From: an uncultured Candidatus Saccharibacteria bacterium
GTDB taxonomy: Bacteria > Patescibacteriota > Doudnabacteria > UBA920
Reading direction: 5' to 3'
Assembly (NCBI GenBank): GCA_964589415.1
Contig: CAZPRQ010000001.1
Span: 11,368-55,489 of the forward strand
DNA length: 44,122 nt
Shown: piece by piece, positions 91 through 36,561 of the stretch
Layout of the letters: each line of letters opens with the position of its first letter
Numbering within the stretch: the stretch's first letter is position 1
Program-made: the position numbers and the translations under genes
Notes under the pieces: generated by a model
What the model saw: only the letters and a program-made list of their open reading frames with translations
The model's database searches: none
Told to the model about the DNA's origin: nothing

Positions 91-1068
91 CTACTTCTTT
101 TTCTTATCGGCCGGAACCCCGCCGATACTAACGATGTAATCTGCACCGGCCTGGATGCGCCGCCAGTCTTTGTGTTCTAACAACGACCGGTAGGCGTAAG
201 CCATTATGCCCAGATCCATGCGGACGTCGTAATCATCAAAATCAAATTCGTTTTCCAGGACACGAGGTTTTTCCAGGTCCGCCATTTCTTGGCGTGCCCG
301 TTCCACAGCATCGAGGCACTGACCCGGACCGGCGACTTCAAACAACCTGCCCACCTGCTCGAAGGTGAAACCGCATTCGACGCGTAGAAACTTTCCGACT
401 TCCCTGGCGTAGTCCCTGCGGCGGTTTTCGCGTTCGCCCTCAGCCATCTTTATTCCGGCTTGAAATTCTTGGTCAAGTCGGTCCCGCTGGGCCCTTAGTT
501 CGGCTTCGTTGTTAGTTACTACCGCCTTACCATCAATATTTGTAATCTTGTCGACAATCTGGGTAATAACCCTTTCCTGTTCACGAACCCGTCGCCAATT
601 TCCGCCGTTCACTGTCCGAGGTGTTAGGTCAATACGCTCAGTGTGATTCAGGGTGCGGATTGCTAGCATGGACTCACCGTTTTTGAGAAACTTGCCGGAT
701 GAAACCATTTCTGGCCCGACAATGCTGCCGGCCGCATATTCCTTATGCGACTCAATGTGGTAACGCTCCTCTTGAACCACCAGGACCTGGTCTTTTGGGA
801 CACGTTTGTAAATCCCGACAGCCAATAGAAGTTCGGGCGGTGCATTTTCCACTAACTTTCCGCTGTCGCAGGAATGGTCACATACCGTGTACGTCGACGG
901 AATAGGGTGACCTTTACCTTTGACGAACTTTACGCTATAGTGCCGCCTTTGTTCGGCACATAACTTGTAGTGTTGGAAGCCTTTGTCATCAGGAACAAGG
1001 CAAACATCAAACCGGACGACTCCGGCTTGCCTGCGGATCTGCTCGACCCTGTAAGTCGTTGTAAACAT
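91..1068 (-). CDS. Hypothetical protein, 325 aa, no recognisable domain; central coiled-coil-like charged segment
   Basis: Long ORF with ATG start. AGGAGG (revcomp of 1081-1086) lies about 12 nt upstream. Visibly more GC-rich than the backbone. Confidence 0.75.
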   Translation of the reverse strand: MFTTTYRVEQIRRQAGVVRFDVCLVPDDKGFQHYKLCAEQRRHYSVKFVKGKGHPIPSTYTVCDHSCDSGKLVENAPPELLLAVGIYKRVPKDQVLVVQEERYHIESHKEYAAGSIVGPEMVSSGKFLKNGESMLAIRTLNHTERIDLTPRTVNGGNWRRVREQERVITQIVDKITNIDGKAVVTNNEAELRAQRDRLDQEFQAGIKMAEGERENRRRDYAREVGKFLRVECGFTFEQVGRLFEVAGPGQCLDAVERARQEMADLEKPRVLENEFDFDDYDVRMDLGIMAYAYRSLLEHKDWRRIQAGADYIVSIGGVPADKKKK

Positions 1069-14768: not shown

Positions 14769-15839
14769 TTATACCGGCTTAATCTTAAATTTTTGTGCGA
14801 ATTTTCTTTTCTTCCACATTAAAGTAATTTTACTCAGCATCTCTGGCAGTACCCGCAGGGTTGAAATTTCAAACAGCACTACATACAAAAACATGGCGAA
14901 TTCTCGAACAAAAAACTGCGGATAAAACCACGGGGAATTTTTTATATACATAAAGATATGGTTTTTGTAATTTAACTGCCTTATTTTTTCGGGAATTTTA
15001 CTGTGATGAGCTATGAATCCTAAAACATCTTTGTACCCGCCTTTCGAAGACCCGGCCGTACGTCCGTGATAGCCAATCGCGCTCGGAACAAACACATGCT
15101 TCCAACCTTTATTTGTCATTCGCCAGCTTAAATCCACATCCTCCCAATACGAATGGAAATCTTCATCGAAATATTCATAGTGGTTAGCGTTTAGCGGATA
15201 GCTTATAGCCTGCAAAGTCGAAGCACGGTACATAGCGCCAGCACCTGAGACCGCGTCAACAAAAATTGATGCGTCAAATTGCCCCCTATCTTCTTCGTGC
15301 TGTCCCCTGTCCCTCGCCCGCCCCGATTTGCTTATACTGACTCCTGTTGTATCCAAAACACAAGGGGAATCCTTGTGCCGCACAAGGATTCCCCTTGTGG
15401 GCGCGTCATCATGTTTTTGAATCTTTAAATCTTTAAATTGATACAGTTTCCCCGTCGCCGCCCCCACTTTCCCGTCCTCAAATACCTTTAGCATCTCTTC
15501 TATGTAATTCGGCTCTAAAATTAGGTCCGGGTTCACAAGCTGAAAAAATTCAACCTCTCCCCCATCCCTCCCCTCATGAGGGAAGGGATTAAGGGAGGGG
15601 TTGCAGTATCTATCGAATACCAAATTATGGCCTTTTGCAAAACCAATATTATATCCCGGATCTATTATTTCGACGTTAGGGAATTTTGACGCAAGTAACT
15701 CTTTTGAGCCGTCATTATTTCCGGAAATTACAGCTACAACATTAAAATCCTTGAAAGTCTGGTTAAAAATAGCCGAAAACACCGGTTCAATCCACTGGCG
15801 GTTATTGTATATTACTTGGACTATGGTAACTTTTGACAT
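14769..15839 (-). CDS. Family 2 glycosyltransferase carrying two in-frame palindromic-element insertions
   Basis: GT2 motifs: IVQVIYNN, NIGFAKGHN, LVNPDLILEP, DEDFHSYWEDVDLSWR. These are interrupted by peptide segments CNPSLNPFPHEGRDGGEVE and APTRGILVRHKDSPCV, each encoded by palindromic DNA. Confidence 0.85.
   Translation of the reverse strand: MSKVTIVQVIYNNRQWIEPVFSAIFNQTFKDFNVVAVISGNNDGSKELLASKFPNVEIIDPGYNIGFAKGHNLVFDRYCNPSLNPFPHEGRDGGEVEFFQLVNPDLILEPNYIEEMLKVFEDGKVGAATGKLYQFKDLKIQKHDDAPTRGILVRHKDSPCVLDTTGVSISKSGRARDRGQHEEDRGQFDASIFVDAVSGAGAMYRASTLQAISYPLNANHYEYFDEDFHSYWEDVDLSWRMTNKGWKHVFVPSAIGYHGRTAGSSKGGYKDVLGFIAHHSKIPEKIRQLNYKNHIFMYIKNSPWFYPQFFVREFAMFLYVVLFEISTLRVLPEMLSKITLMWKKRKFAQKFKIKPV
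15359..15399. repeat. Palindromic element family B, copy inside the GT2 CDS
   Basis: Perfect 19-bp arms CACAAGGGGAATCCTTGTG / CACAAGGATTCCCCTTGTG around a CCG loop. Related to 27824-27866. Confidence 0.85.
15551..15600. repeat. Palindromic element family A, solo copy inside the GT2 CDS
   Basis: CAACCTCTCCCCCATCCCTCCCCTCATGAGGGAAGGGATTAAGGGAGGGG. Continuing into 15601-15602, its revcomp (AACCCCTCCCTTAATCCCTTCCCTCATGAGGGGAGG...) aligns with 10449-10482 (AACCCCTCCTAACCTCCCCTTTGAAAAGGGGAGG). Confidence 0.75.
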
Positions 15840-15855
15840 AATTAAATTTTAGGGC

Positions 15856-17454
15856 CTACCCGCGGCCGCTTTTTGGGCCGACAAAACCTGTTAATTCATT
15901 TCCAATTATACCTTCAGTCTTAATATTTCTTAAAATAGCTCCGGAGGCCGCCAATTCTAAAAAGAAAAATATAAGAGCCTTGTCATTGTACCAGGTAACG
16001 TCAAAAAAAGCCGCCGCCGCAAGCCACAAAAAAACCAAACCCGCCTGCAGTACCAAAAACAGCCAGATTGTGTTTTCTTTTTGGTTTACTTTCACATATT
16101 TCCAAAACTCCCGGCAAACTGTTAGCCAAAAAAGCGCGAACAAAACCAACCCAAGCCAACCAAGCTCAACGGCGATATGTAAATACAAGTTATGAGCTGT
16201 AACGTACTTTTGCGGCAAATTATACCGCAAGTTTTTTTGTTCCGCCAAAAGTTCATATTTAACATTTGCCAACGCTTCGGGCGTAGCCGCCGAAACTAAA
16301 AAATTTGCCGCCCCGGTTCCAAGTGGATGCGAAATGGCATAGCGTGCGCTTTCTTTCCATATAAGTATACGCCCCGCGTTGGAAGTTTCATTTAAATCGT
16401 AAATGCTCTGGGCGCGATTTAAGAAATTTTCTTCAAACACCCCTCCGGCGCGTACAAATGCCAGCCCCCTATTTATGAGAGGAGAAATTGCAAATAATAC
16501 AACAATAATTAAAAGCGGCCAAAAAAAAGTTTTAACAGCTGGCCTCAAAAAAGTTTTTGCGTACGAAATTATTATTGCCAAAAGCGGGGCAAGCATTCCC
16601 ACCCACACGGCTCGCGTGCCGGACAAAATTAGCGCCAACGAAGCAAAACGGATTCCAGACCAAATAAAGCGGCGAAGTCTCTGGGATGCACCCATGGTTA
16701 GCGCGGCGCCTATACCAATTGCATAAACACACAAATAGGCAAACGACTGCGAATCCGGCATTATGCCAAACATGCGCAGCTGACGCCCATCGGTAAATGA
16801 AAACCAAGAATTGGAATACAGAGAAACGACGGCAAAATTCACTCCATAATACGCTTGTGTAAATGTGGTCGCCCAAAAAACCCAAAAAGTGTCCAGTGGC
16901 GTAAAAAAAGTGTAAGCTAACTGCCCAAAACCCGCGGCAATAAAAACCGATAAACTTACGGCCGCGTACCTAAAAAGCGCGAGCACCTGCTCTTTAGTTT
17001 GAATAGTTTGGACCATGACGAAATAAAACAAAAAAATATTAAAAAAGAACAAAAATTGCATTAGTGCTGGCAATCGAAATGACGACCAAATACTGCTAAT
17101 AAGTATAAGCGCGCCAAAGGCATACAAATACCGATCCCAAGGCAAAAACACTATGCGTTTTAAACTAAATTTATTTTCCTTAAAAAACCAAACTACAAAA
17201 AGCCAGGCCACCAGCGGCCGCCAGGCTGACAATGTTTCAAAAAAACCGTTAGGCACAATGACCATGGCCGGCAAGGAGGCCACAAGCACGTATACACCTT
17301 CCTCGAGTGGCCGAAAAACAATATAAAGCATTACAATGGCCATATTCACCCATACAAGCCAAGTTGGCCAGCCAAACACAGCCATTAGAAGCACGGAAAA
17401 TAGTTGCCAAACAACCAGTATGGCTATATAAAATTTTCTTGAAAAATTATGCAT
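15856..17454 (-). CDS. O-antigen ligase/polymerase-like (Wzy_C family) polytopic membrane protein
   Basis: At least 10 hydrophobic helices. AHNLYLHIAVELGWLGLVLFALF resembles the Wzy_C/O-antigen ligase motif. Overlaps the GT4 stop by 8 nt. Confidence 0.8.
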   Translation of the reverse strand: MHNFSRKFYIAILVVWQLFSVLLMAVFGWPTWLVWVNMAIVMLYIVFRPLEEGVYVLVASLPAMVIVPNGFFETLSAWRPLVAWLFVVWFFKENKFSLKRIVFLPWDRYLYAFGALILISSIWSSFRLPALMQFLFFFNIFLFYFVMVQTIQTKEQVLALFRYAAVSLSVFIAAGFGQLAYTFFTPLDTFWVFWATTFTQAYYGVNFAVVSLYSNSWFSFTDGRQLRMFGIMPDSQSFAYLCVYAIGIGAALTMGASQRLRRFIWSGIRFASLALILSGTRAVWVGMLAPLLAIIISYAKTFLRPAVKTFFWPLLIIVVLFAISPLINRGLAFVRAGGVFEENFLNRAQSIYDLNETSNAGRILIWKESARYAISHPLGTGAANFLVSAATPEALANVKYELLAEQKNLRYNLPQKYVTAHNLYLHIAVELGWLGLVLFALFWLTVCREFWKYVKVNQKENTIWLFLVLQAGLVFLWLAAAAFFDVTWYNDKALIFFFLELAASGAILRNIKTEGIIGNELTGFVGPKSGRG

Positions 17455-27922: not shown

Positions 27923-30900
27923 TTATTGGCCGAGCAGCAAACCAAGCAAGGTTTCGCGCTTTTTGAAAGCCGCGAACAGACCGGTTAAAGCAGCGGCAAA
28001 TATGCCGGCAGTCATGGCATCAGACCCGGTTTTGGGGGCTACGTAAGCGCCCAAAACTTGCGGGGTGTTTACGCGCACCGTTACGGTATTGCCATAAGTG
28101 TTAGTCATTACATAGCTTAGGTTTTGCGCCAAATAATATTTAACGCGAACCTTAAAGCTCTTGGTTACGGTACTGCCGGACGGAATAGTTACGGCAGGAT
28201 AAGTTATAACGTTTCCGGAAATCTGGCCTCCGCCGTTGTCCACAATATCCGCGTAAGGCAACACCTGCGACAAATCGTCGGTTATTACAAAGCTATTGGC
28301 CGGAGTATTACCGGAATTGGTCACTGTAAGTGTGTAAGTAATATAGTCCTCGCGGGCAGCCGGGGTGCTTTGGGCGTCAATATTTTTAGTATCGTTCCAA
28401 GCTTTCTTGCTATAGGTAAGGCTTACATTTCCACCGGCCACATTGGTGGTGAAAACCCAAGCGTCATCTTGGACTTCGCTTACGCTATCGCCGCTAACTC
28501 TGGCAATATTTTGAATGCCGTTAGAAACGCTTCCGTTTACGCGAACTTGGAAGGTTAAGGTGCGGCTTTGTCCGGCCATAAGGCTGCCAACATAATAATT
28601 CTGGTAATCGTTCCCTGAAACATAAGACAACCCTGTCGGCAAATAGTCGGTAACACGAACATTGTTTACAACCTGGTTGCCGGAATTGGTAACCACAATT
28701 TGGAATTCAACGGTATCGTTTCCATTTACCGTAACTGAGTTTGTAAACGAACCGTTTTGGCTTCGAACAGACTTCGTTATAGCCAGCTGGCGGAATTCAT
28801 TGGCAGGAACCGTGCTACCTTGGTTGGTTATGTAATACCAGTTATTGCAGGAATTATTTACGCAAGTATTTACATTGTTAACCGTATTGTTATTTCCGTT
28901 AATATTGGTGTTGTTAGTAACGGTGTTATTGTTGTTGCCGGTTACCGTTGTGGTATTGTTATTGTTATTGCAGGAATTGGTGCTGTTGTTGCAATTGCCA
29001 CCCGTAGAAGTTTCCGCTGGAATATTTACCGTGGCAGTCGCAAGTGTAGTGTTACACTCCGCGTCTATCATGTAGAAGCTGTGGCTTGAACCCAAGGCCA
29101 AACCGGTAACAGTAAATGAGCCGGTGTTATTTCCCGTCGCTATAACATTGCCCGTGGAATTCTGGGAAATTTTAATTTGATGACTGCCCGTAGAAGTCCA
29201 GTTTAAGGTGGCATTGTAAGTTGAACCGGATTTGACCACATTGCTGACATTTAAAGCAAAGTTAGAGTTTGGCACGCATACAGTGCTTGTGGTTTTGCGC
29301 AGGACAAAAGTGGACATTAATCCGCCGCAACTGGACAAATCATAGAGCTTAAAAACATAATCCTTGTTAGGATCAAAATTATTAAACTGCTTGCTGCCCG
29401 ACTGATTAACAGAGGCAACAAATACGACTTCCTGACCGTTGTCGGGATTTATATAACTTACTTTAACAGGATTATTTCCGGAAAAAGACCAGGAAATGTT
29501 TGTGCTGTACTTGCCACCAAATAATTCGGAAATCGCCGAAGCGGAAATAACACCATTGGTGTTTGGCACGCATACCGGTGCTGGGTTTACAACGACCACA
29601 GTCGGGCAATTGGCAGTCTGAGTTCCGCGCGTAACTCTTACATTATAAGTACCGGCTTGGGAAAAAGCGGCGGAATAGGCGGAAGAATTGTTGCCAACAT
29701 TGGTGTTGTTTACATTCCAGCTATAAGCGCCTTCCCCGCCTTGGGCGGTAAAATTAACCACCTGTCCGGTTTGGACATTGGTAGCCGAAGCCGAGCAAGT
29801 TAAAGTTGGCGTCTGAGCAGGCTGAGTAACAGCCACAGCCGGACAATTTACGGACTGGCTGCCGCGAGTTACCGTGGCAACATAGGAACCGGCCTGATTA
29901 AAAGTAGCTGTGTAATTTGAGGAATTTCCGCTAACCGAAGCATTGTTTACTTTCCAGCTAAACGCGCCCTCGCCGCCGGCAGCGGTAAAGCTAACGGATT
30001 GTCCGGCAAGAATTGAACTGGCAGAAGCTGAACAAGTAAGAGGGTTAGGCTGAACAGTGGTTTGAGAAACATTTACATTACAATAAACAGTTTGGCCGCC
30101 GCTATGAACCGCTACAGGATAATTACCGGGATTGGTAAAGCGAGTAGAAAAACTTGAACCGGTGCCAACCTGGGGATTTCCGCCGGTAATTGTCCACTGG
30201 TAAGCGCCTTCGCCGCCGGTTGCGGTTAAGTTCACAAATTGATTAACTTGCGCGTTTTGGTTTAAAGGAGAACATACCAGGGTTGCCGGAACACTAACAG
30301 TAACTCCGCAACTGGCGCTTTGAGTGCCGCTAATAACCCTGACTTCATAACTGCCCCTTGAAGCATAGGAAGTGGCAAAATCTCTGCCGCTGCCAATTAC
30401 TTTTGTGGAACCTATGGCGGTCCAATTATAAACTCCGGTACCGCCGGAAGCGGTGAAATTTACGGAAGTATAAGGCTCAGTAGTACGGTTTTGGGGGCTG
30501 CAAATCAAAGTTTGCACAACAGGAGTTGGGTCAACCGGTTCACTGCAATTTTTTACCCTAAAAGGCACAGTTCGTGATACACCGTTTATTTTTGCGGTCT
30601 TTGTCCAAGACCCTATTTGGCTTTCATTTTGATTATGGTTAAATACTCCGCCGGGACCTGACCAGGAACCATTGCTTCCAACAGTATGTCCATAATAGGT
30701 ATCCACTTCCAAAGTAGGATTGTTATTAAAAGAAGAACTCCATAAAATTTGCTTACCAATTAACCCGGCCGTGGCATTGCTTACGGTAAAAACAGGCACG
30801 TTCGTATTGGCACAAATATCCGTCATGCTAATGGATAAATTAAAACTTTCCTCGGAAGGAGTTGTGGGGCTGCCGCAATTTAAAGCAGCTCCGGCCGGCA

Positions 30901-31912
30901 TCCAGGATTCGCTAAGCAATTTAACCATATAACTTTGTCTGCCTTCGTTGTATACGCGGAAAGACTGCGACTGGCCGCCTTGGGCGGGATTTACTTCCCA
31001 TAAAGTAAAGCGATAAGGCTTTTCCGGCTGTATCCATCCTACGGTCTGGTTGCCGTTGTCTCCGCTGGCAAAAACGGTGTCGTTGCCGTAGTAATTGTTG
31101 CTGTTTAAATCCGGATCGGAAACGGTTACCAACACATCATTTACATTGGCGGTATTCCAAACAACAGTACCGTTGTACAAACACTCTGCGGTAGGACTGC
31201 CTAGCTGGGTGCTTATGTTATAGGAAGGATTAACCGGGGTTTGGCCTTGGGTCTTCACTACGCGCACTTTAAAAACTACAAATTTGCTTTGATCAAAACA
31301 GCCTGGCAAGTCGTTTAAAAACGCTTTTACGGCAGGCTCGCCGTTATGGGAAGTTACACTAACCGAACCGGCGCCATTGTCTGCCTGTCCAAACCAGTTC
31401 TGTAAATGGGCGGAGCCGGGAACTATTTCCAATTTTTCGTCGGCTGCCGTACGTATGGCAAAAGATCCGTTCACTGTTCCGGCATTGCTAGAAGTAACGG
31501 TGGAACCAATAACATGCTCAGGTTCGGCGGTGTCGTTTACGGTAACCACGGCATTAACGCCGCGGGCCGCGTCCGGACTGCCCGCCGGCTGGCCATTGTG
31601 TATATACACGCGCACTTCAAATTCGTCTCCACTTGTAGCATTCCAACCGCCATAAAGCTGATCGAAACTGGTTGGGTACTGGCCGTTTTTACCGGCCCAA
31701 ATTGCGGGCCAGTCTTTACATGCCTCATTGGTCAAAGTAACCGGATAAGGGTTTAATGTGGGGTTCTGGGGGGCGTTGGCGCAAGTAGCCGGAGTGTCGG
31801 CATAAAGCGCTTGGTAGGCGCGCGGGGCGCCAAATAAAGCCACCACGGCAAAAACCGCAACCGCAGTCGCGACTTTCCAATTCATGGTGACCTTTGAGAT
31901 AAATTTATTCAT
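27923..31912 (-). CDS. Giant secreted surface protein (1329 aa): tandem Cys-bounded Ig-like repeats, Asn/Cys-rich tract, DUF11-type repeats, C-terminal sortase sorting signal
   Basis: N-terminal signal/TM segment. Four ~75-aa repeats of the form L(I/V/T)CS...GG(T/E)G.Y.W...C. DUF11-like TVTNSGN..A..V.V.D.LP. C-terminus is APKTG plus a hydrophobic helix plus KKRE. Confidence 0.88.
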   Translation of the reverse strand: MNKFISKVTMNWKVATAVAVFAVVALFGAPRAYQALYADTPATCANAPQNPTLNPYPVTLTNEACKDWPAIWAGKNGQYPTSFDQLYGGWNATSGDEFEVRVYIHNGQPAGSPDAARGVNAVVTVNDTAEPEHVIGSTVTSSNAGTVNGSFAIRTAADEKLEIVPGSAHLQNWFGQADNGAGSVSVTSHNGEPAVKAFLNDLPGCFDQSKFVVFKVRVVKTQGQTPVNPSYNISTQLGSPTAECLYNGTVVWNTANVNDVLVTVSDPDLNSNNYYGNDTVFASGDNGNQTVGWIQPEKPYRFTLWEVNPAQGGQSQSFRVYNEGRQSYMVKLLSESWMPAGAALNCGSPTTPSEESFNLSISMTDICANTNVPVFTVSNATAGLIGKQILWSSSFNNNPTLEVDTYYGHTVGSNGSWSGPGGVFNHNQNESQIGSWTKTAKINGVSRTVPFRVKNCSEPVDPTPVVQTLICSPQNRTTEPYTSVNFTASGGTGVYNWTAIGSTKVIGSGRDFATSYASRGSYEVRVISGTQSASCGVTVSVPATLVCSPLNQNAQVNQFVNLTATGGEGAYQWTITGGNPQVGTGSSFSTRFTNPGNYPVAVHSGGQTVYCNVNVSQTTVQPNPLTCSASASSILAGQSVSFTAAGGEGAFSWKVNNASVSGNSSNYTATFNQAGSYVATVTRGSQSVNCPAVAVTQPAQTPTLTCSASATNVQTGQVVNFTAQGGEGAYSWNVNNTNVGNNSSAYSAAFSQAGTYNVRVTRGTQTANCPTVVVVNPAPVCVPNTNGVISASAISELFGGKYSTNISWSFSGNNPVKVSYINPDNGQEVVFVASVNQSGSKQFNNFDPNKDYVFKLYDLSSCGGLMSTFVLRKTTSTVCVPNSNFALNVSNVVKSGSTYNATLNWTSTGSHQIKISQNSTGNVIATGNNTGSFTVTGLALGSSHSFYMIDAECNTTLATATVNIPAETSTGGNCNNSTNSCNNNNNTTTVTGNNNNTVTNNTNINGNNNTVNNVNTCVNNSCNNWYYITNQGSTVPANEFRQLAITKSVRSQNGSFTNSVTVNGNDTVEFQIVVTNSGNQVVNNVRVTDYLPTGLSYVSGNDYQNYYVGSLMAGQSRTLTFQVRVNGSVSNGIQNIARVSGDSVSEVQDDAWVFTTNVAGGNVSLTYSKKAWNDTKNIDAQSTPAAREDYITYTLTVTNSGNTPANSFVITDDLSQVLPYADIVDNGGGQISGNVITYPAVTIPSGSTVTKSFKVRVKYYLAQNLSYVMTNTYGNTVTVRVNTPQVLGAYVAPKTGSDAMTAGIFAAALTGLFAAFKKRETLLGLLLGQ

Positions 31913-32343
31913 ACGCGTGTATATAATTAATATATTAATTAAATTAAATGATGATTAAATTAATGATGATTGAAGTGCAAAAGACAAAATTTACCTTTTG
32001 CAACAAAACCACCAGGGGAAGAATTTAGAATTTAGGATTTAGAATCTAGGATAAAGGCAACCTGCAGTACTTGATAACTTATGATTATACCCAATTTTAA
32101 TTATTTTGTCAATTACTTTAAATAATATATGGCTTAAATAAAGGATATTTTATTTTAAACCCCTTTATTCATAGTCATTTTTGATTTTTGTGGGCTTTTT
32201 CGCACTATCCTACCTAAATTGTTTAATAATGGCGATATTGTAGTTTGCCCATTTATGGGCCATAAAACTACATTTAAAGTCATTTTTTCCTTTCAATCCT
32301 AATTTACTATACAGAATTTCCTGCTATATCGCTATATCAAATT

Positions 32344-32382
32344 TAAAAAAAAGTGGGGGCCAACATAAGTAGAAGGCCCCCA
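32344..32382 (-). terminator. Rho-independent terminator of gene 32412..34628
   Basis: On the minus strand: TGGGGGCC-(13-nt loop)-GGCCCCCA followed by CTTTTTTTT. Confidence 0.85.
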
Positions 32383-32411
32383 ATGTACAGTTAGTTTTCG
32401 GTATGGAACCC

Positions 32412-34628
32412 CTATGGGTTCCAATTCCCTGTTCTGTCCCCATCCAACTTAATGAGGGCGCCCTTACCACCACCCCTTGTTAGCAGGAAAATGGCCAGGC
32501 CTGCGCCAACAGCAGCCAAAATCCACAACCACTTCTTACTTCCTTTCTTTTTGATTGTGAACTGGCGATCGCAGCGGACTTGGCAGGTTTTGCCGTTAGA
32601 GAGTCTGGACTCGCCAACCAAGGTAATGCTATATGTCCCTGGTTCAAAATCCAGCGTGTTAATGGTAAGCCGATCATCCGTAAGGTCAGCACGGGAGTAT
32701 CGCTTACCCCCAAGGGTGACGGTATAGTCCACCCACTCCGCCCGAAGGTTATCGAGCGCGAAAGTGAATGTAGCCGTCTCGTTAATCTTGAGACTCTTGG
32801 GCCCCTGCACATTGCAATTGGGACACACTTCAGGAATCTCAAAAGTGTTTGCCTGACCGTCGCCGGGGCAGGTAAACAACACGTTCCCATGCTTGTCTAC
32901 GCCCTGAACGGTAATAGCGTACCGAACTCCGGGGATAATCTCCTTGCCAGGTCGGAAAGTGAACGGGGAATGTAAACTCTCCCCCACCTTACGACCGTCA
33001 ATGAAGTAAACGAGCTTTGAAAGCCGACCGGCTTCGTCTAGGTAGTTGGTCACTACTTCAACTTGGCCGTTCTCCAGCACACTAACCCGCACACTATCAC
33101 ACGCAAGCGCTGGCGGAATGATCGGTGGCGGCGGTGGGGGTAGACGCTTCACTAGCGGCACACTGCACTTCACAGTGTAAGTGGTCGGGCTTCCTTTTGC
33201 CCTAACAGTCCCAGTGTAAACCAAGTCTGTCTGGGTTTCGGAAACTTGCGACCCCCGAAGGGTAAGTTCGAAGTTGTTACCGACAACACTGCCCCCAAAC
33301 ATCCACTCAGATTTTAAAACTTCAACATCCTGGTCCATGATGGGTTTATATTGCCCAATCTGTTCTTCAGACGTAAAGTCTTTTACCGAAGCTTGGATTG
33401 TTTGGCAGACAGCACTGACAGCCTCAGTACGAAATACCGTACCTTTAGTCTGTACCACATTGGCATTCCCGCCACACTCGAGACCGTTCTCCACCAAAAG
33501 CGGGATTTCGAGTAGCATGAGGCGCAAGACCTCAAACCGCTCTTGTCCCGACTTCAAGTTAAGACGATAACCCGCACGGGTAACACCACCGCGGCCGCTG
33601 CCTTGTTTCCAAATTAGGCTCGGCTTGTCGACCTTGGCGAGATTGAGCACAAATGGCCAGTTGTACTTCATGGCCAAGACAAGTCGCCGCTTCCACGCAT
33701 TTTTGATTTCCATTTCCTGGGAAGCATGCTCCCCAAGGATTTGGATTTCATCAATGTGTGTCAGCACCCGCTGAAAGTCCTTCCGCATTTCGCTTATGTC
33801 TGCGAAACGGTTACCAGCCGGCAAAGTCGCCCACTCAGTAAAAGGTTTAAAATCTTTAAAGAATGGGTTTGCGAGGTCAGTTTCGGGTTGGAGATCTTCT
33901 GGATAAGCGTATTTGGGATCCGCCTTTATCGCGTACGCCTTTGGGTACATGCCCGTTATGAGATGCACCAGATCTTCCGGCGACGTGACTTCCTTTTCTC
34001 GCCGTTCGAACTCTGCCATCTGCTCAGGGCTCAAATCTTTTTCCATCGAATCCCAAACCGTTAGCAAGCGTGGGGCGTCGAACACTTCATCACGACGGTC
34101 ATTCCGAACACTTCCTTGTCCCGGAACTTCGGGCGTCGATCGCACCGAGGTATCCGTAGGTTGAGAGGCGGAAGAATTACGCAGTCGCTGAATTGCTTCG
34201 TCGGCACGCAACCGCGCCTCGCGGGCTTCGCGTTCCAGACGTTGAATTTCCGTCTCAGAGTTCTGGTTTTGGGCCAGAACCACTGTTTCGGAAAGTGGCG
34301 TCGCCGTTGGAATACGAGAAAGCCTTAACCGGCTAGGTGTTGTGTAGAGGTCAGAGTTAACTTCGTTGTAAGCCAGGAGCACTGGCTCCTCAAGTTCCAA
34401 TGTCACCGGTAAATCCACATGAATATAGGGTAAGTGGAATTTTTCAGTAACCGTAAGAACCGTAGGCTTGTTGGCCACCACCATCAACGGAAACATCACT
34501 CCGATGGTGGGTATAGAGCTGGAAGTCGGTGGGATGAGTTGCACCGGCAACGCGGCGTTGGCCGTCGCTGTGGTGAGTAAAGCGAAAACGCAAATGAGGG
34601 CCACTAGGGCCCGGTTCGGGGTCGTCAT
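32412..34628 (-). CDS. Hypothetical surface protein, 738 aa, with signal peptide and C-terminal TM anchor; GC-rich
   Basis: AAGGAGAA SD 5 nt before the ATG. Signal peptide ALVALICVFALLTTATANA. Contains a coiled-coil segment, a PPPPPPIIPP linker, Ig-like C-terminal modules and the TM helix WLWILAAVGAGLAIFLL. No domain I can name. Confidence 0.8.
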   Translation of the reverse strand: MTTPNRALVALICVFALLTTATANAALPVQLIPPTSSSIPTIGVMFPLMVVANKPTVLTVTEKFHLPYIHVDLPVTLELEEPVLLAYNEVNSDLYTTPSRLRLSRIPTATPLSETVVLAQNQNSETEIQRLEREAREARLRADEAIQRLRNSSASQPTDTSVRSTPEVPGQGSVRNDRRDEVFDAPRLLTVWDSMEKDLSPEQMAEFERREKEVTSPEDLVHLITGMYPKAYAIKADPKYAYPEDLQPETDLANPFFKDFKPFTEWATLPAGNRFADISEMRKDFQRVLTHIDEIQILGEHASQEMEIKNAWKRRLVLAMKYNWPFVLNLAKVDKPSLIWKQGSGRGGVTRAGYRLNLKSGQERFEVLRLMLLEIPLLVENGLECGGNANVVQTKGTVFRTEAVSAVCQTIQASVKDFTSEEQIGQYKPIMDQDVEVLKSEWMFGGSVVGNNFELTLRGSQVSETQTDLVYTGTVRAKGSPTTYTVKCSVPLVKRLPPPPPPIIPPALACDSVRVSVLENGQVEVVTNYLDEAGRLSKLVYFIDGRKVGESLHSPFTFRPGKEIIPGVRYAITVQGVDKHGNVLFTCPGDGQANTFEIPEVCPNCNVQGPKSLKINETATFTFALDNLRAEWVDYTVTLGGKRYSRADLTDDRLTINTLDFEPGTYSITLVGESRLSNGKTCQVRCDRQFTIKKKGSKKWLWILAAVGAGLAIFLLTRGGGKGALIKLDGDRTGNWNP

Positions 34629-34686
34629 GATATTTCTCCTTCGAAATTTTTTCGGCCTGTTCGGCCGGCATTACTGCTGGCCGTTA

Positions 34687-34742
34687 AGCCGAACAGAAGG
34701 GAATCTCTAATAAAAATATTAGTAACTTCCTTCTGCTCGGCT
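34687..34742 (-). promoter_or_regulatory. Long hairpin in the 5' leader of gene 34628..32412
   Basis: AGCCGAACAGAAGG (34687-34700) pairs with CCTTCTGCTCGGCT (34729-34742) at 13/14, and the mismatch is G-U in the mRNA. Inner stem is CTAATA/TATTAG. Confidence 0.5.
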
Positions 34743-34789
34743 GGACCTAAAAAATTTTCAAAGACATCCTGTCCCCTTTTCCATATTTT

Positions 34790-34893
34790 TCCGCGACTTT
34801 TCCGCGCCTTCCCTTTCCGCGAGTAATCCGCGTAGTAATCATCTGCGTGTAATCCGCGTTTTTTACTTCCGCGTTAAATCCGCGCTTTTAAAA
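34790..34893. repeat. Four tandem 26-bp units, each holding two TCCGCG words 11 bp apart
   Basis: TCCGCG starts at 34790, 34801, 34816, 34827, 34853, 34868 and 34879, with a degenerate TCTGCG at 34842. Spacing alternates strictly 11/15 bp. Confidence 0.85.
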
Positions 34894-35044
34894 CCGAAAA
34901 CTTTTTCCTCCCTATAAATTGTTAAGGTTATGCCTAAAGCGTTTCCTCAGGCATATTTTTACCCGCTAACAAATGCAAAAACCGCATTCACAAACGGACA
35001 ATCAATGCTTAAGGTTATAATTTTATTTTAGTTTTAGAGAGTTT

Positions 35045-35081
35045 AGAGAGGGTCATCTTCTCAGAGAAGATGACCCTCTCT
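35045..35081. repeat. 37-nt near-perfect palindrome downstream of the sortase gene
   Basis: AGAGAGGGTCATCTTCTC-A-GAGAAGATGACCCTCTCT, 18-nt arms. No T-run on either strand. Confidence 0.85.
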
Positions 35082-35133
35082 GCCTTAACTACCTGGGTTA
35101 ATTCTCCCTTCGACAGGCTTGAGGACGAGCTAT

Positions 35134-36561
35134 CTATTTTACAACTTGAGTAAGCTCGCCAAACACGACTAAGCGCTTTTGGGTGGTGCCAACCGGCCAG
35201 CAAGTAGAAAGAGCGACAGTAGAAACTCCCGAATTCATAAACTGCGCCTGGTCGTCGGGCTTGTATTCTTTTCGGCTTTTAACCACATAATGCAGCACGG
35301 CATCTTTGCCGTTTTTTTGCACTACGGTAACTTTAAAGGAAGTATAGTCGGCCAAATTGCCGAGCTTTGCAAACACGCTGTTGTAATTGCCTTTGGCCCA
35401 CACGTAATTGCTGGAGTGTCCGGAAATATATGAAGTCCCAATTTGTCCGGGAAGCGCCGTGCCGGGATAATGTATTACACCGCTTTGCAAATCTTTTTCA
35501 AAGTTGTCCGGATTGCTGCTCCATATAATGGGCACGTTTATTTTTAGCGACGGAATTTCCAATCGGCCGGGTATTTTCTCGTCAATGTCAAGCAGGGCGC
35601 CGTCTAAATTCGCGCCTCCAATGGGCGCCGGCCCTGTTACTACCGGCTGCCTATAAACAGTCGGATTTTCCATAGCTGTCTCCGGGCTGGAAGTCTGGGC
35701 AGGCGCGAAACTATTATTATAAACCGGGACGCTTTCGGAAGACTCGGCGTAAGTGTTAGCCCTCAAACCTTCAAGCGAAGGTTCAATAGTCGTTGACTCT
35801 CCCGCCACCCGGCCGTTTTCCTGCATTTGCTGGAGGGTAAAACGGTTCATAATAACTTCCATATCAAAATATTTTTCTACAATCTGCTCTTGCTGTTTTG
35901 TAAGCTTGCCGCCAGTGAGCGGATTGATGCCCTGAGAAATGGCCTGGCTGTCAGCAATGCCGAGACCCAATGTATCGTAGGATTTAGGATTCAAATTTAG
36001 TAAAAATTTCTGAAAATTGGACAAACCGTTGCCGGAATTATCCCTGTCGGCCGCCAAAACCGACTCGTCGGATACATCGTAATAGTAAGAACGGATCCAA
36101 GTTTCATAGGCTGCCATATTGCCTTTCATGATGCCTTCAAGCTCAGTCTGTTTAACTGTCGCGGCCTTGGGGGTGGACTTAAATATTTTGCCAAAATCCA
36201 ACGTTTGAAAAAAGAAAAAATACAGCGTTAAACCAATAACAAATACCAAAAGGTATGGCACTGCGGTGCGTATAAACCCGCCCGTACCGCCGCCCTTGGC
36301 AGCCTCAATATCGCGGCTAATTACTTCCTCGCGGGAATGACTGTCATTGCTTACCGCGGACGAGACAATTTCATGCGCATTACCCACCAATTCCTCACCC
36401 ACAGGTAAATTGGCTGGTCCAGGTGCGGTAATGGGGCTATTGGCATTTTCTTCATGCAAAAGCACGCTTCCATCATTTTCGGCTATTGGGCCGTTTAAAT
36501 TGAGCATGGAAGCTATTTCGCTAGTCGCAGCGGGAAAGCTTTTTTCCTTGGAATTAGACAT
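35134..36561 (-). CDS. Sortase-domain transpeptidase with a ~320-aa N-terminal extension (disordered region, TM helix, unknown middle domain)
   Basis: The C-terminal ~150 aa carry ISGHSSNY (His), VALSTCWP (TLxTC-like Cys) and KRLVVFGEL (Arg). TM helix is LLVFVIGLTLYFFFF. Confidence 0.85.
   Translation of the reverse strand: MSNSKEKSFPAATSEIASMLNLNGPIAENDGSVLLHEENANSPITAPGPANLPVGEELVGNAHEIVSSAVSNDSHSREEVISRDIEAAKGGGTGGFIRTAVPYLLVFVIGLTLYFFFFQTLDFGKIFKSTPKAATVKQTELEGIMKGNMAAYETWIRSYYYDVSDESVLAADRDNSGNGLSNFQKFLLNLNPKSYDTLGLGIADSQAISQGINPLTGGKLTKQQEQIVEKYFDMEVIMNRFTLQQMQENGRVAGESTTIEPSLEGLRANTYAESSESVPVYNNSFAPAQTSSPETAMENPTVYRQPVVTGPAPIGGANLDGALLDIDEKIPGRLEIPSLKINVPIIWSSNPDNFEKDLQSGVIHYPGTALPGQIGTSYISGHSSNYVWAKGNYNSVFAKLGNLADYTSFKVTVVQKNGKDAVLHYVVKSRKEYKPDDQAQFMNSGVSTVALSTCWPVGTTQKRLVVFGELTQVVK

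Follow-up and report, generated by a model that had tools for sequence, protein, structure and literature searches.

A putative hypervariable surface-protein family in the slot between sortase and adhesin of Doudnabacteria-type Patescibacteria

Very little is known on partner recognition and attachment in the candidate phyla radiation (CPR, Patescibacteria) outside Saccharibacteria. Sortases are common in the group: more than half of the CPR genomes are reported to contain a sortase family, and on the point relevant here the report goes no further than that (Méheust et al. 2019, PMC6744442). A DNA stretch of 44,122 nucleotides from an uncultured bacterium (assembly GCA_964589415.1, contig CAZPRQ010000001.1, positions 11,368 to 55,489), referred to here as the window, contains a sortase gene, the gene of a giant adhesin with a sorting signal and, placed between them, a GC-rich gene for a protein of 738 residues, designated here as gene X. 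The window is a chromosomal CPR piece encoding ribosomal protein S9, RpoA, AlaRS, glycosyltransferases and rml genes, and public records list the closest relatives of its sortase under Candidatus Doudnabacteria or Patescibacteria. A literature search found no paper describing this sortase-X-adhesin locus. The question raised by the locus is what gene X encodes, how it came to stand between the two partners and why its composition deviates from that of the genome.

An earlier note on the same DNA had described X as a surface protein within an adhesion locus, probably acquired horizontally and perhaps from a phage. The signal peptide, the membrane anchor and the sortase and adhesin neighbors bear out the first part. 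The explanation preferred here, with a probability of roughly 0.55, is that X belongs, as one allele, to a hypervariable and so far undescribed surface-protein family whose fixed place in Doudnabacteria-type CPR is the slot between the sortase and the APxTG adhesin and whose members act as recognition proteins swapped by recombination.

The slot and its variable occupant

An independent contig from a second sample (SRR12762304) encodes an identical X protein flanked by the 3' end of the sortase and the 5' end of the adhesin gene, and the arrangement is therefore not an assembly artefact or chimera. In all eight readable contexts, the homologue of X adjoins at least one of the two genes, sortase or adhesin. 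The loci L009, L010, L011/L012 (GCA_003151625.1) and L014 show both flanks, L001 and L008 only the downstream adhesin homologue, and L013 only the upstream sortase. Synteny is kept throughout, in the order rmlA, a membrane protein of 300 aa, a CAP protein on the opposite strand, the sortase, X, the APxTG adhesin, an epimerase, a GT2 glycosyltransferase and an S8 peptidase.

The sortase, used as a probe, retrieved 77 species-level loci from GTDB. The slot holds a non-adhesin open reading frame (ORF) in about 37 of these and is empty in 21, where the adhesin directly follows the sortase (for example, L006). It is filled in approximately 60% of Doudnabacteria-like species and bypassed in about one third of related species. 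The earlier note had regarded a conserved position together with a known family as evidence against acquisition; the position proved to be conserved, and no known family could be assigned. With a family profile, additional members were recognised immediately behind the sortase in L015, L018, L036, L037, L050 and L055, and 23 slot proteins form with X a single homology network, accompanied by two other clusters of seven and eight members. Nearly all the slot proteins share a strong Shine-Dalgarno sequence, a signal peptide (often ending in AQQ), a Gly/Ala-rich C-terminal transmembrane (TM) segment and a Gly/Pro-rich tail.

Other arrangements were observed at the slot. In a separate cluster of slot proteins (L063 11676-13262, L067 11427-13358 and relatives), the protein ends in a PG_binding_1 domain and has no TM anchor. 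In L016 (11404-12799), L017 (9852-11250) and L074 (11296-12601), the sortase and the adhesin are separated by gaps of 1.1-1.4 kb with antisense ORFs only, which may be decayed slot genes. In L032, a 408-aa ORF (15772-16998) with a G+C content at third codon positions (GC3) of 0.60 versus 0.45 lies after the adhesin rather than before it and has no clear signal peptide at the called start. A coupling of X to a particular type of adhesin N-terminus, hinted at by whole-protein tblastn, was overturned by segment queries and is ruled out: the adhesin N-terminus is homologous (about 30% identity) with or without X, and so is the C-terminus.

The occupant of the slot varies more than its neighbors. 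In every pair of loci compared, the slot protein is less conserved than the sortase, with identities (sortase/slot protein) of 96/70, 89/76-80, 81/65 and 79/67%. In other pairs the slot proteins have no detectable similarity, namely between the window and L015 (sortase 74%) and between L057 and L059, L072 or L075 (sortase 79-80%). L015 is the nearest relative of the window, with protein identities of 84% for RmlA, 79% for the membrane protein, 74% for CAP as well as for the sortase, and 86% for the adhesin N-terminus. On both sides of the slot, the DNA of the two loci is 70-76% identical, and a block of 86 nucleotides spanning the leader and the start codon reaches 91%. Between the slot proteins themselves (738 and 660 aa), BLASTP yields E-values of 0.1-0.45 and only the family profile links them. 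The DNA similarity detected by blastn ends at the ATG and restarts about 280 nucleotides upstream of the adhesin start, near position 32190. Conserved flanks around an unalignable interior with sharp breakpoints are the signature of allele replacement by recombination in the flanks. Consequently, the proposal of horizontal acquisition stands for wholesale exchange of the coding sequence between close relatives and fails for a sporadic foreign insertion, given that the slot is the same and the locus syntenic. The contigs of L003 and L004, which carry the closest relative's sortase in two samples, both end about 90 nucleotides after the sortase stop codon; this is consistent with the assembly breaking at a strain-variable slot.

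In the preferred reading, X would be a strain-specific determinant for the recognition of, or attachment to, a host or partner cell, working alongside the adhesin. Hosts, competitors or phages would exert diversifying selection on it, and new alleles would enter by homologous recombination in the conserved flanks. Neither silent cassettes nor internal repeats were found within the window, and no X-gene DNA repeats longer than 20 nucleotides, as a template of a diversity-generating retroelement would require, occur elsewhere in it.

Several points weigh against this reading. The absence of a slot gene in one third of the species means that the gene is dispensable. No known domain ties the head of X to a ligand, and its core (aa 185-400) is modelled at moderate confidence only and was searched only together with the stalk. 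Diversifying selection is deduced from the divergence relative to the flanks and not from the ratio of nonsynonymous to synonymous substitution rates, and exchange between lineages from the replacements only, since none of the distant hosts yielded a nearly identical allele. Finally, the polarised-substitution test on the maintenance of GC3, described below, gave about 2.2:1 under a biased parsimony, with a mirror artefact in the flanks.

Protein architecture, leader and transcription signals

The earlier note had regarded X as a self-contained unit, and a structured leader, Shine-Dalgarno sequence, signal peptide, TM anchor and own terminator are all present (Table 1). From the N-terminus, the protein comprises the signal peptide (MTTPNRALVALICVFALLTTATANA), a disordered segment, a long charged helix that includes EIQRLEREAREARLRADEAIQRL, a helical/beta core ending in ENGLECGGNANVV, three beta-sandwich modules, the TM segment and a Gly-rich tail of 20 aa. 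The charged coiled-coil, poly-Pro hinge and Ig-like modules read from the sequence in the earlier note thus correspond to helix 114-152, PPPPPP at 497-502 and the three sandwiches. In an alignment of 11 sequences, the invariant residues are D334, L368, C385, N388 (within the motif CGGN), C408, W442 and C488, and the Pro run after C488 is also kept. The TM segment is homologous to the C-termini of the slot proteins of L037, L052 and L043.

X has the signal peptide that sortase substrates require. The motif [LAIVM]PxTG occurs nowhere in the protein; by its sequence X is therefore not a sortase substrate and would be membrane-anchored instead. It is predicted to be a secreted protein held in the membrane through a single C-terminal TM helix. 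The AlphaFold2 model, built with the 11-sequence alignment, has an overall predicted local distance difference test score (pLDDT) of 67.5, rising to 80-91 in the stalk domains; an earlier model from two sequences reached a pLDDT of 41 and its Foldseek output was disregarded. The model shows a distal helical/beta head on a stalk consisting of a beta-sandwich domain, the poly-Pro hinge and two Ig-like domains. Foldseek against the PDB returned only tandem Ig-like/FN3 stalks, such as SiiE, MpIBP and CD22 (E 1e-8, probability 1.0). With the whole model as query, BFVD returned only generic tandem Ig/FN3 arrays (Hoc-like and FN3 proteins) at about 11% identity and TM-scores of 0.1-0.25.

The absence of a recognised domain, reported in the earlier note, was confirmed in the family searches. 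No significant match to X was found in NCBIfam, in PHROGs (best E 0.37) or in a profile search of PDB sequences, and the PADLOC models recognised 0 families among X and four other slot proteins. None of the Pfam matches exceeded the gathering score, the nearest being Big_7 (15.2 bits against a cutoff of 24.1). Other slot proteins have sub-threshold matches to PKD, Cna_B or DUF11. According to AlphaFold2 and Foldseek, the fold is a beta-sandwich despite the lack of a Pfam Ig-domain match. For the N-terminal helical/beta head, which carries the CGGN motif, the Pfam and PDB-profile searches detected no counterpart. No relative appeared when IMG/VR, GTDB genomes and JGI metagenomes were searched with back-translated patterns. 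A word-indexed search of 5.8 billion proteins recovered a single homologue (P0002, 38% identity over the core), and a word-based search with the 11-sequence profile recovered three proteins only. About ten homologues emerged when 1.84 billion representatives were searched exhaustively with a HMMER profile, the weaker matches covering only the Ig-like modules. The homologues point to a real family that matches no known one and, as far as the searches show, has not been described.

The leader of X folds at -52.4 kcal/mol (z = -7.3), and all the slot-gene leaders examined fold strongly (z -2.9 to -8.9). At least 11 family members share an element located 20-45 nucleotides upstream of the start, composed of YTCGG(C), a GGCC-type hairpin of variable length and (G)CCGAR, with a short spacer on either side of the hairpin; the consensus of the motif is CTGYTCGGC...GCCGAR. 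MAFFT alignments of the leaders failed to place the inner 3' arm, and scans with regular expressions or descriptors were either too strict or, in GC-rich loci, too loose. For this reason the remaining leaders were aligned by Infernal to a covariance model, R1, seeded on the window and L015 only. Over 1.38 Mb, on both strands, the matches of R1 (counted at E < 0.1 or when located in a leader) were, apart from the seeds and their palindromic reverse strands, slot-gene leaders only. These five are L026 (4.5e-5), L011 (4e-4), L001 (0.02), L052 (0.07) and L037 (0.5). One outer pair of the motif is U-A in the window, L015 and L011, C-G in L026, L037 and L052, and a C.A mismatch in L001, and the inner hairpins stay complementary despite differing sequences. 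The covariation, which is thin, hints at an element acting as RNA, or perhaps at an inverted repeat in the DNA, and the motif is a candidate new cis-regulatory RNA. Rfam has no match to the leader; the only hit within 31800-35300 is a chance mir-263 inside the coding sequence (E 0.37). The 3' arm of a second, 26-bp hairpin overlaps the motif, and alternative pairing would therefore be possible. Further upstream, at 130-230 nucleotides from the X start, lies an array of CGCGGAW repeats with seven exact copies in 96 nucleotides and one degenerate copy (CGCAGAT), which is absent from L015 and may represent candidate regulator-binding sites.

In most slot-gene leaders (window 34629-34650; L005, L059-L079), the Shine-Dalgarno sequence lies in the loop of a small hairpin, the 3' arm of which reaches almost to the start codon, an arrangement that recurs in unrelated slot-gene clusters.

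The terminator of X consists of a hairpin with the arms TGGGGGCC/GGCCCCCA followed by T8; it was read by eye, as the automated scan misses it due to the 12-nt loop. Every locus, whether X is present or absent, keeps the promoter TTGACAAA...TATAAT in front of the adhesin gene. Given this promoter and the terminator of X, the two genes would be transcribed separately, and by its signals X is an independent unit between the sortase terminator and the adhesin promoter. Two further elements occur on the sortase side. A conserved element of about 40 nucleotides, TCGTCYTSARCYTGTCGAARGGRGAATTAACCCAGGT, directly follows the sortase stop codon in several lineages (window ~35090-35133, L014 3107-3150 and, in two copies, L006 11351-11440), without a match in Rfam. 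About 55 nucleotides after the stop codon lies an inverted repeat (window 35045-35081) whose 18-bp arms match perfectly around a 1-nt loop; an A-rich, not T-rich, tract follows it on the sortase strand.

Table 1. Window coordinates of gene X, its protein segments, its expression signals and its two neighbors
Feature	Position	Strand	Basis or remark
Coding sequence of slot protein X, 738 aa, ATG start	32412..34628	-	ORF list, homologues at 20-38% identity, AlphaFold2 model
Signal peptide, aa 1-25, ending in ATANA before A	34554..34628	-	hydrophobic maximum 2.4
Long charged helix, aa 114-152	34173..34289	-	AlphaFold2 helix, pLDDT 77-90
Conserved family core, aa 183-400, helical bundle and small beta unit	33429..34082	-	alignments, profile-search coverage
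Stalk, three Ig/FN3-like beta-sandwich domains, aa 405-495, 509-597, 605-693	32544..33416	-	AlphaFold2, pLDDT 80-91
PPPPPP hinge, aa 497-502	33123-33140	-	
Predicted C-terminal TM anchor, aa 699-718	32475..32534	-	KKKGSKK before, Gly-rich tail RGGGKG...NWNP after
Shine-Dalgarno sequence GAAGGAG, in loop of small hairpin (AUUUC/GAAAU)	34636..34642	-	7 nt before ATG
Conserved leader motif: CTGTTCGGC, GGCC...GGCC hairpin, GCCGAA	34647..34696	-	91% identical to L015
Leader hairpin with 26-bp arms, 3' arm overlapping the motif	34687..34742	-	inverted repeat; minimum free energy fold
Eight direct CGCGGAW repeats upstream of leader, alternating 11/15-nt spacing	34789..34884	-	
Intrinsic terminator of X, 8-bp GC stem, 12-nt loop, T8	32345..32382	-	sequence read by eye
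Consensus sigma-70 promoter of adhesin, TTGACA-17-TATAAT	32084..32112	-	
Exchangeable cassette, approximate extent (no DNA similarity to L015)	32190..34625	-	blastn blocks
Sortase, upstream neighbor	35134..36561	-	Pfam PF04203, 3.4e-19; NCBIfam sortase
DUF11/PKD adhesin with C-terminal APKTG sorting signal, downstream neighbor	27923..31912	-	

The neighbors have features of their own. The adhesin ends in APKTG, a hydrophobic stretch and KKRE (window 27923-28060), and in 46 of its 49 orthologues (L006-L080) the sorting signal is APxTG and not LPxTG, which suggests a clade-specific sortase specificity. In L007 (11114-15379) and L011/L012 (12154-17065), the adhesin is split into a separate gene for the N-terminal domain (about 380 aa) and a repeat and anchor part. 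At the N-terminus of the sortase, about 330 aa (aa 1-330) form an extension with a TM segment; this extension lies outside any Pfam model and holds the invariant block DNSGNGLSNFQK...NPKSYDT.

Base composition of the slot genes

The G+C content of the X coding sequence is 52.1%, compared with 43.0 +/- 3.7% in the other 32 ORFs, and its GC3 is 0.562 versus 0.441 +/- 0.059. The counts made by hand in the earlier note were exact (45.0% for 32521-32580 and 60.0% for 33121-33180), and its claim of an atypical composition agrees with the windowed G+C and codon usage analysis: X is the GC-richest stretch of 2217 bp in the window (G+C 43.1%; mean 0.431, standard deviation 0.026). Of the AT-rich gaps proposed on both sides, the downstream one (31913-32411) has 29.3% G+C, and the upstream one (34629-35133) is at the genome average (42.0%). 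The GC3 expected from the amino acids of X and the codon usage of the window is 0.455, below the observed value, and therefore the excess is synonymous. GC skew is unremarkable. Similar codon shifts occur in the window and in L010, with TTC, ATC, AAC, TAC, AAG, CTC and CGG increased and ATA, TTA and AGA decreased.

The same deviation is found across the slot genes. In 40 loci, the GC3 of the slot gene is 0.61 +/- 0.09 at a background of 0.25-0.85, with a slope on the background of 0.18 (p = 0.13). The excess averages +0.16 and is positive in 34 of the 40 loci (Wilcoxon 1.6e-9), compared with only +0.007 for the adhesin beside the slot. Extreme differences between slot gene and background are those of L059 (0.68/0.25), L072 (0.71/0.29) and L062 (0.75/0.34); in L009 and L050, whose hosts are GC-rich, the GC3 of the slot gene equals the background or falls slightly short of it. 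An excess that recurs in 34 of 40 lineages is therefore not the mark of one recent transfer. A G+C of approximately 52-60% is a trait of the family, held whatever the G+C of the genome, and not the scar of a recent foreign or phage insertion. The slot cluster ending in PG_binding_1 has little or no excess, L063 and L065 being slightly negative. Two GC-rich ORFans of the window (91-1068 and 1247-1978, both on the reverse strand; G+C 0.52 and 0.51, GC3 0.56 and 0.62) have no Pfam or PHROG match and encode highly charged, cytoplasmic-looking proteins; with neither similarity to X nor a signal peptide, they were ruled out as paralogues or silent cassettes.

The fixed composition has two candidate causes, selection on the DNA or mRNA and exchange within a GC-rich allele pool shared between lineages. 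It is proposed tentatively, as a possibility worth following rather than an expected outcome, that the composition of the slot genes (about 55-60% G+C and GC3 of about 0.6 in hosts of 36-64% G+C) is set independently of the genome by one of these routes and comes together with an undescribed structured leader RNA. In the version based on an allele pool, pan-lineage alleles would be exchanged by recombination at two sites, the leader and the adhesin promoter region, at a rate that outpaces the amelioration of their composition. In the alternative, selection would act directly on some property of the nucleic acid, either the gene or its mRNA.

This second cause, for example a long-lived and highly structured mRNA in place of ancestry in a GC-rich pool, concerns the composition only and is a serious possibility, held at somewhat under even odds. 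It is favored by a GC3 that stays at about 0.6 over the whole range of hosts and falls slightly below the background in the GC-rich ones, by the extremely structured leaders and by the presence of terminators. Moreover, orthologous alleles whose divergence went along with that of their flanks (third-position difference 0.29-0.37) keep a GC3 of 0.68-0.73 in hosts of about 0.25-0.34. Among the polarised synonymous changes of such alleles (L059, L072 and L060), those from G or C to A or T exceed the reverse by only about 2.2:1, where a rough calculation for host bias acting by itself gives 5-6:1; the ratio of 2.2:1 was obtained by a biased parsimony polarisation, and the flanks show a mirror artefact. 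On the other hand, the ribosomal-protein and RpoA genes of the window lack codon shifts of the X type, and the shift is thus not an ordinary expression-linked codon bias.

Other roles for X, known systems and significance

As X always lies between the sortase and its substrate and is membrane-anchored like the sortase, it might be an accessory of the sortase pathway, acting on the APxTG adhesin as a presenting factor, chaperone or scaffold, or on the sortase as a regulator. The TM segment and tail, which are the parts most widely kept across the subfamilies, would fit such a role. Assembly factors are normally conserved, however, whereas X changes more rapidly in sequence than its two neighbors, and the gene has been exchanged or lost in loci that retain the sortase and the adhesin. 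Its separate transcription and the adhesin termini, homologous with or without X, argue in the same direction, and an accessory role is considered unlikely.

Hypervariability, allele replacement and dispensability would fit equally well a protein targeted in an arms race, that is, a decoy or shield that serves as a phage receptor or masks one and does not bind a host. The stalked, surface-exposed architecture is also compatible with this. The sequence alone does not separate such a role from host recognition; no match to known defence proteins was found with PADLOC, and the proposal is judged to have a rather small chance of being correct.

A recent horizontal insertion of a foreign gene, possibly a phage-derived receptor-binding or superinfection-exclusion protein as the earlier note had suggested, would account for the atypical composition and codon usage, for the empty slot in about one third of the relatives and for a self-contained unit bounded by a terminator and a promoter, but it is very improbable and largely refuted by the positional conservation: homologous or like-built genes fill the slot across the clade, the GC excess recurs independently of the host, PHROG, IMG/VR and PADLOC gave no match and BFVD only generic Ig arrays, no integrase, att-like repeats or mobile-element genes flank X, the leader is older than the allele (91% conserved while the coding sequence differs), and the neighbors, from the sortase, CAP, rml genes and adhesin to GT2, the S8 peptidase, ribosomal protein S9, RpoA and AlaRS, are chromosomal.

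Several known systems can be compared with X. As in the Gram-positive sortase-substrate loci with LPXTG adhesins or pilins, X lies between a sortase (PF04203) and a giant adhesin with a sorting signal; unlike the substrates of those loci, it lacks [LA]PxTG, ends in a TM segment with its 20-aa tail and forms a separate transcription unit. The C-terminal half of X, with its consecutive beta-sandwiches, resembles the Ig-like/FN3 stalked adhesins (SiiE 2yn3/2yn5, MpIBP 4p99, GhpA 9g8b), although the identity is 10-15%, the TM-scores are 0.1-0.3, X has three modules only and its CGGN head is unmatched. In Borrelia, the vlsE gene and the vls cassettes have about 50% G+C in a genome of 28%. They share with X a surface-exposed, fast-varying protein whose gene is GC-richer than the genome across related species; the differences are the lack of silent cassettes in the window and the variation of X between lineages rather than within a genome. 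Allele replacement bounded by conserved flanks is typical of capsule and O-antigen loci and of pneumococcal surface-protein alleles, where conserved flanks, an unalignable interior and sharp breakpoints are found as in the X slot. The latter differs in being a single-gene cassette that is GC-richer rather than AT-richer, with a structured 5' leader inside the conserved flank. Hypervariable surface-protein loci with conserved flanks are thus already known; the X family, the fixed CPR sortase slot, the genome-independent G+C and the leader motif are undescribed as far as the searches show.

For the biology of these bacteria, X is a candidate strain-specific surface determinant beside a conserved sortase-anchored adhesin, and its slot is a defined recombination cassette whose conserved flanks make it traceable in metagenomic populations. 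The slot gene also offers a clean natural case of G+C uncoupled from the genome across dozens of species, one in which atypical composition, taken as evidence for horizontal transfer, would mislead. If true, either mechanism behind the composition would represent an unusual mode of gene evolution in CPR and would provide a handle on how episymbionts vary their surface.

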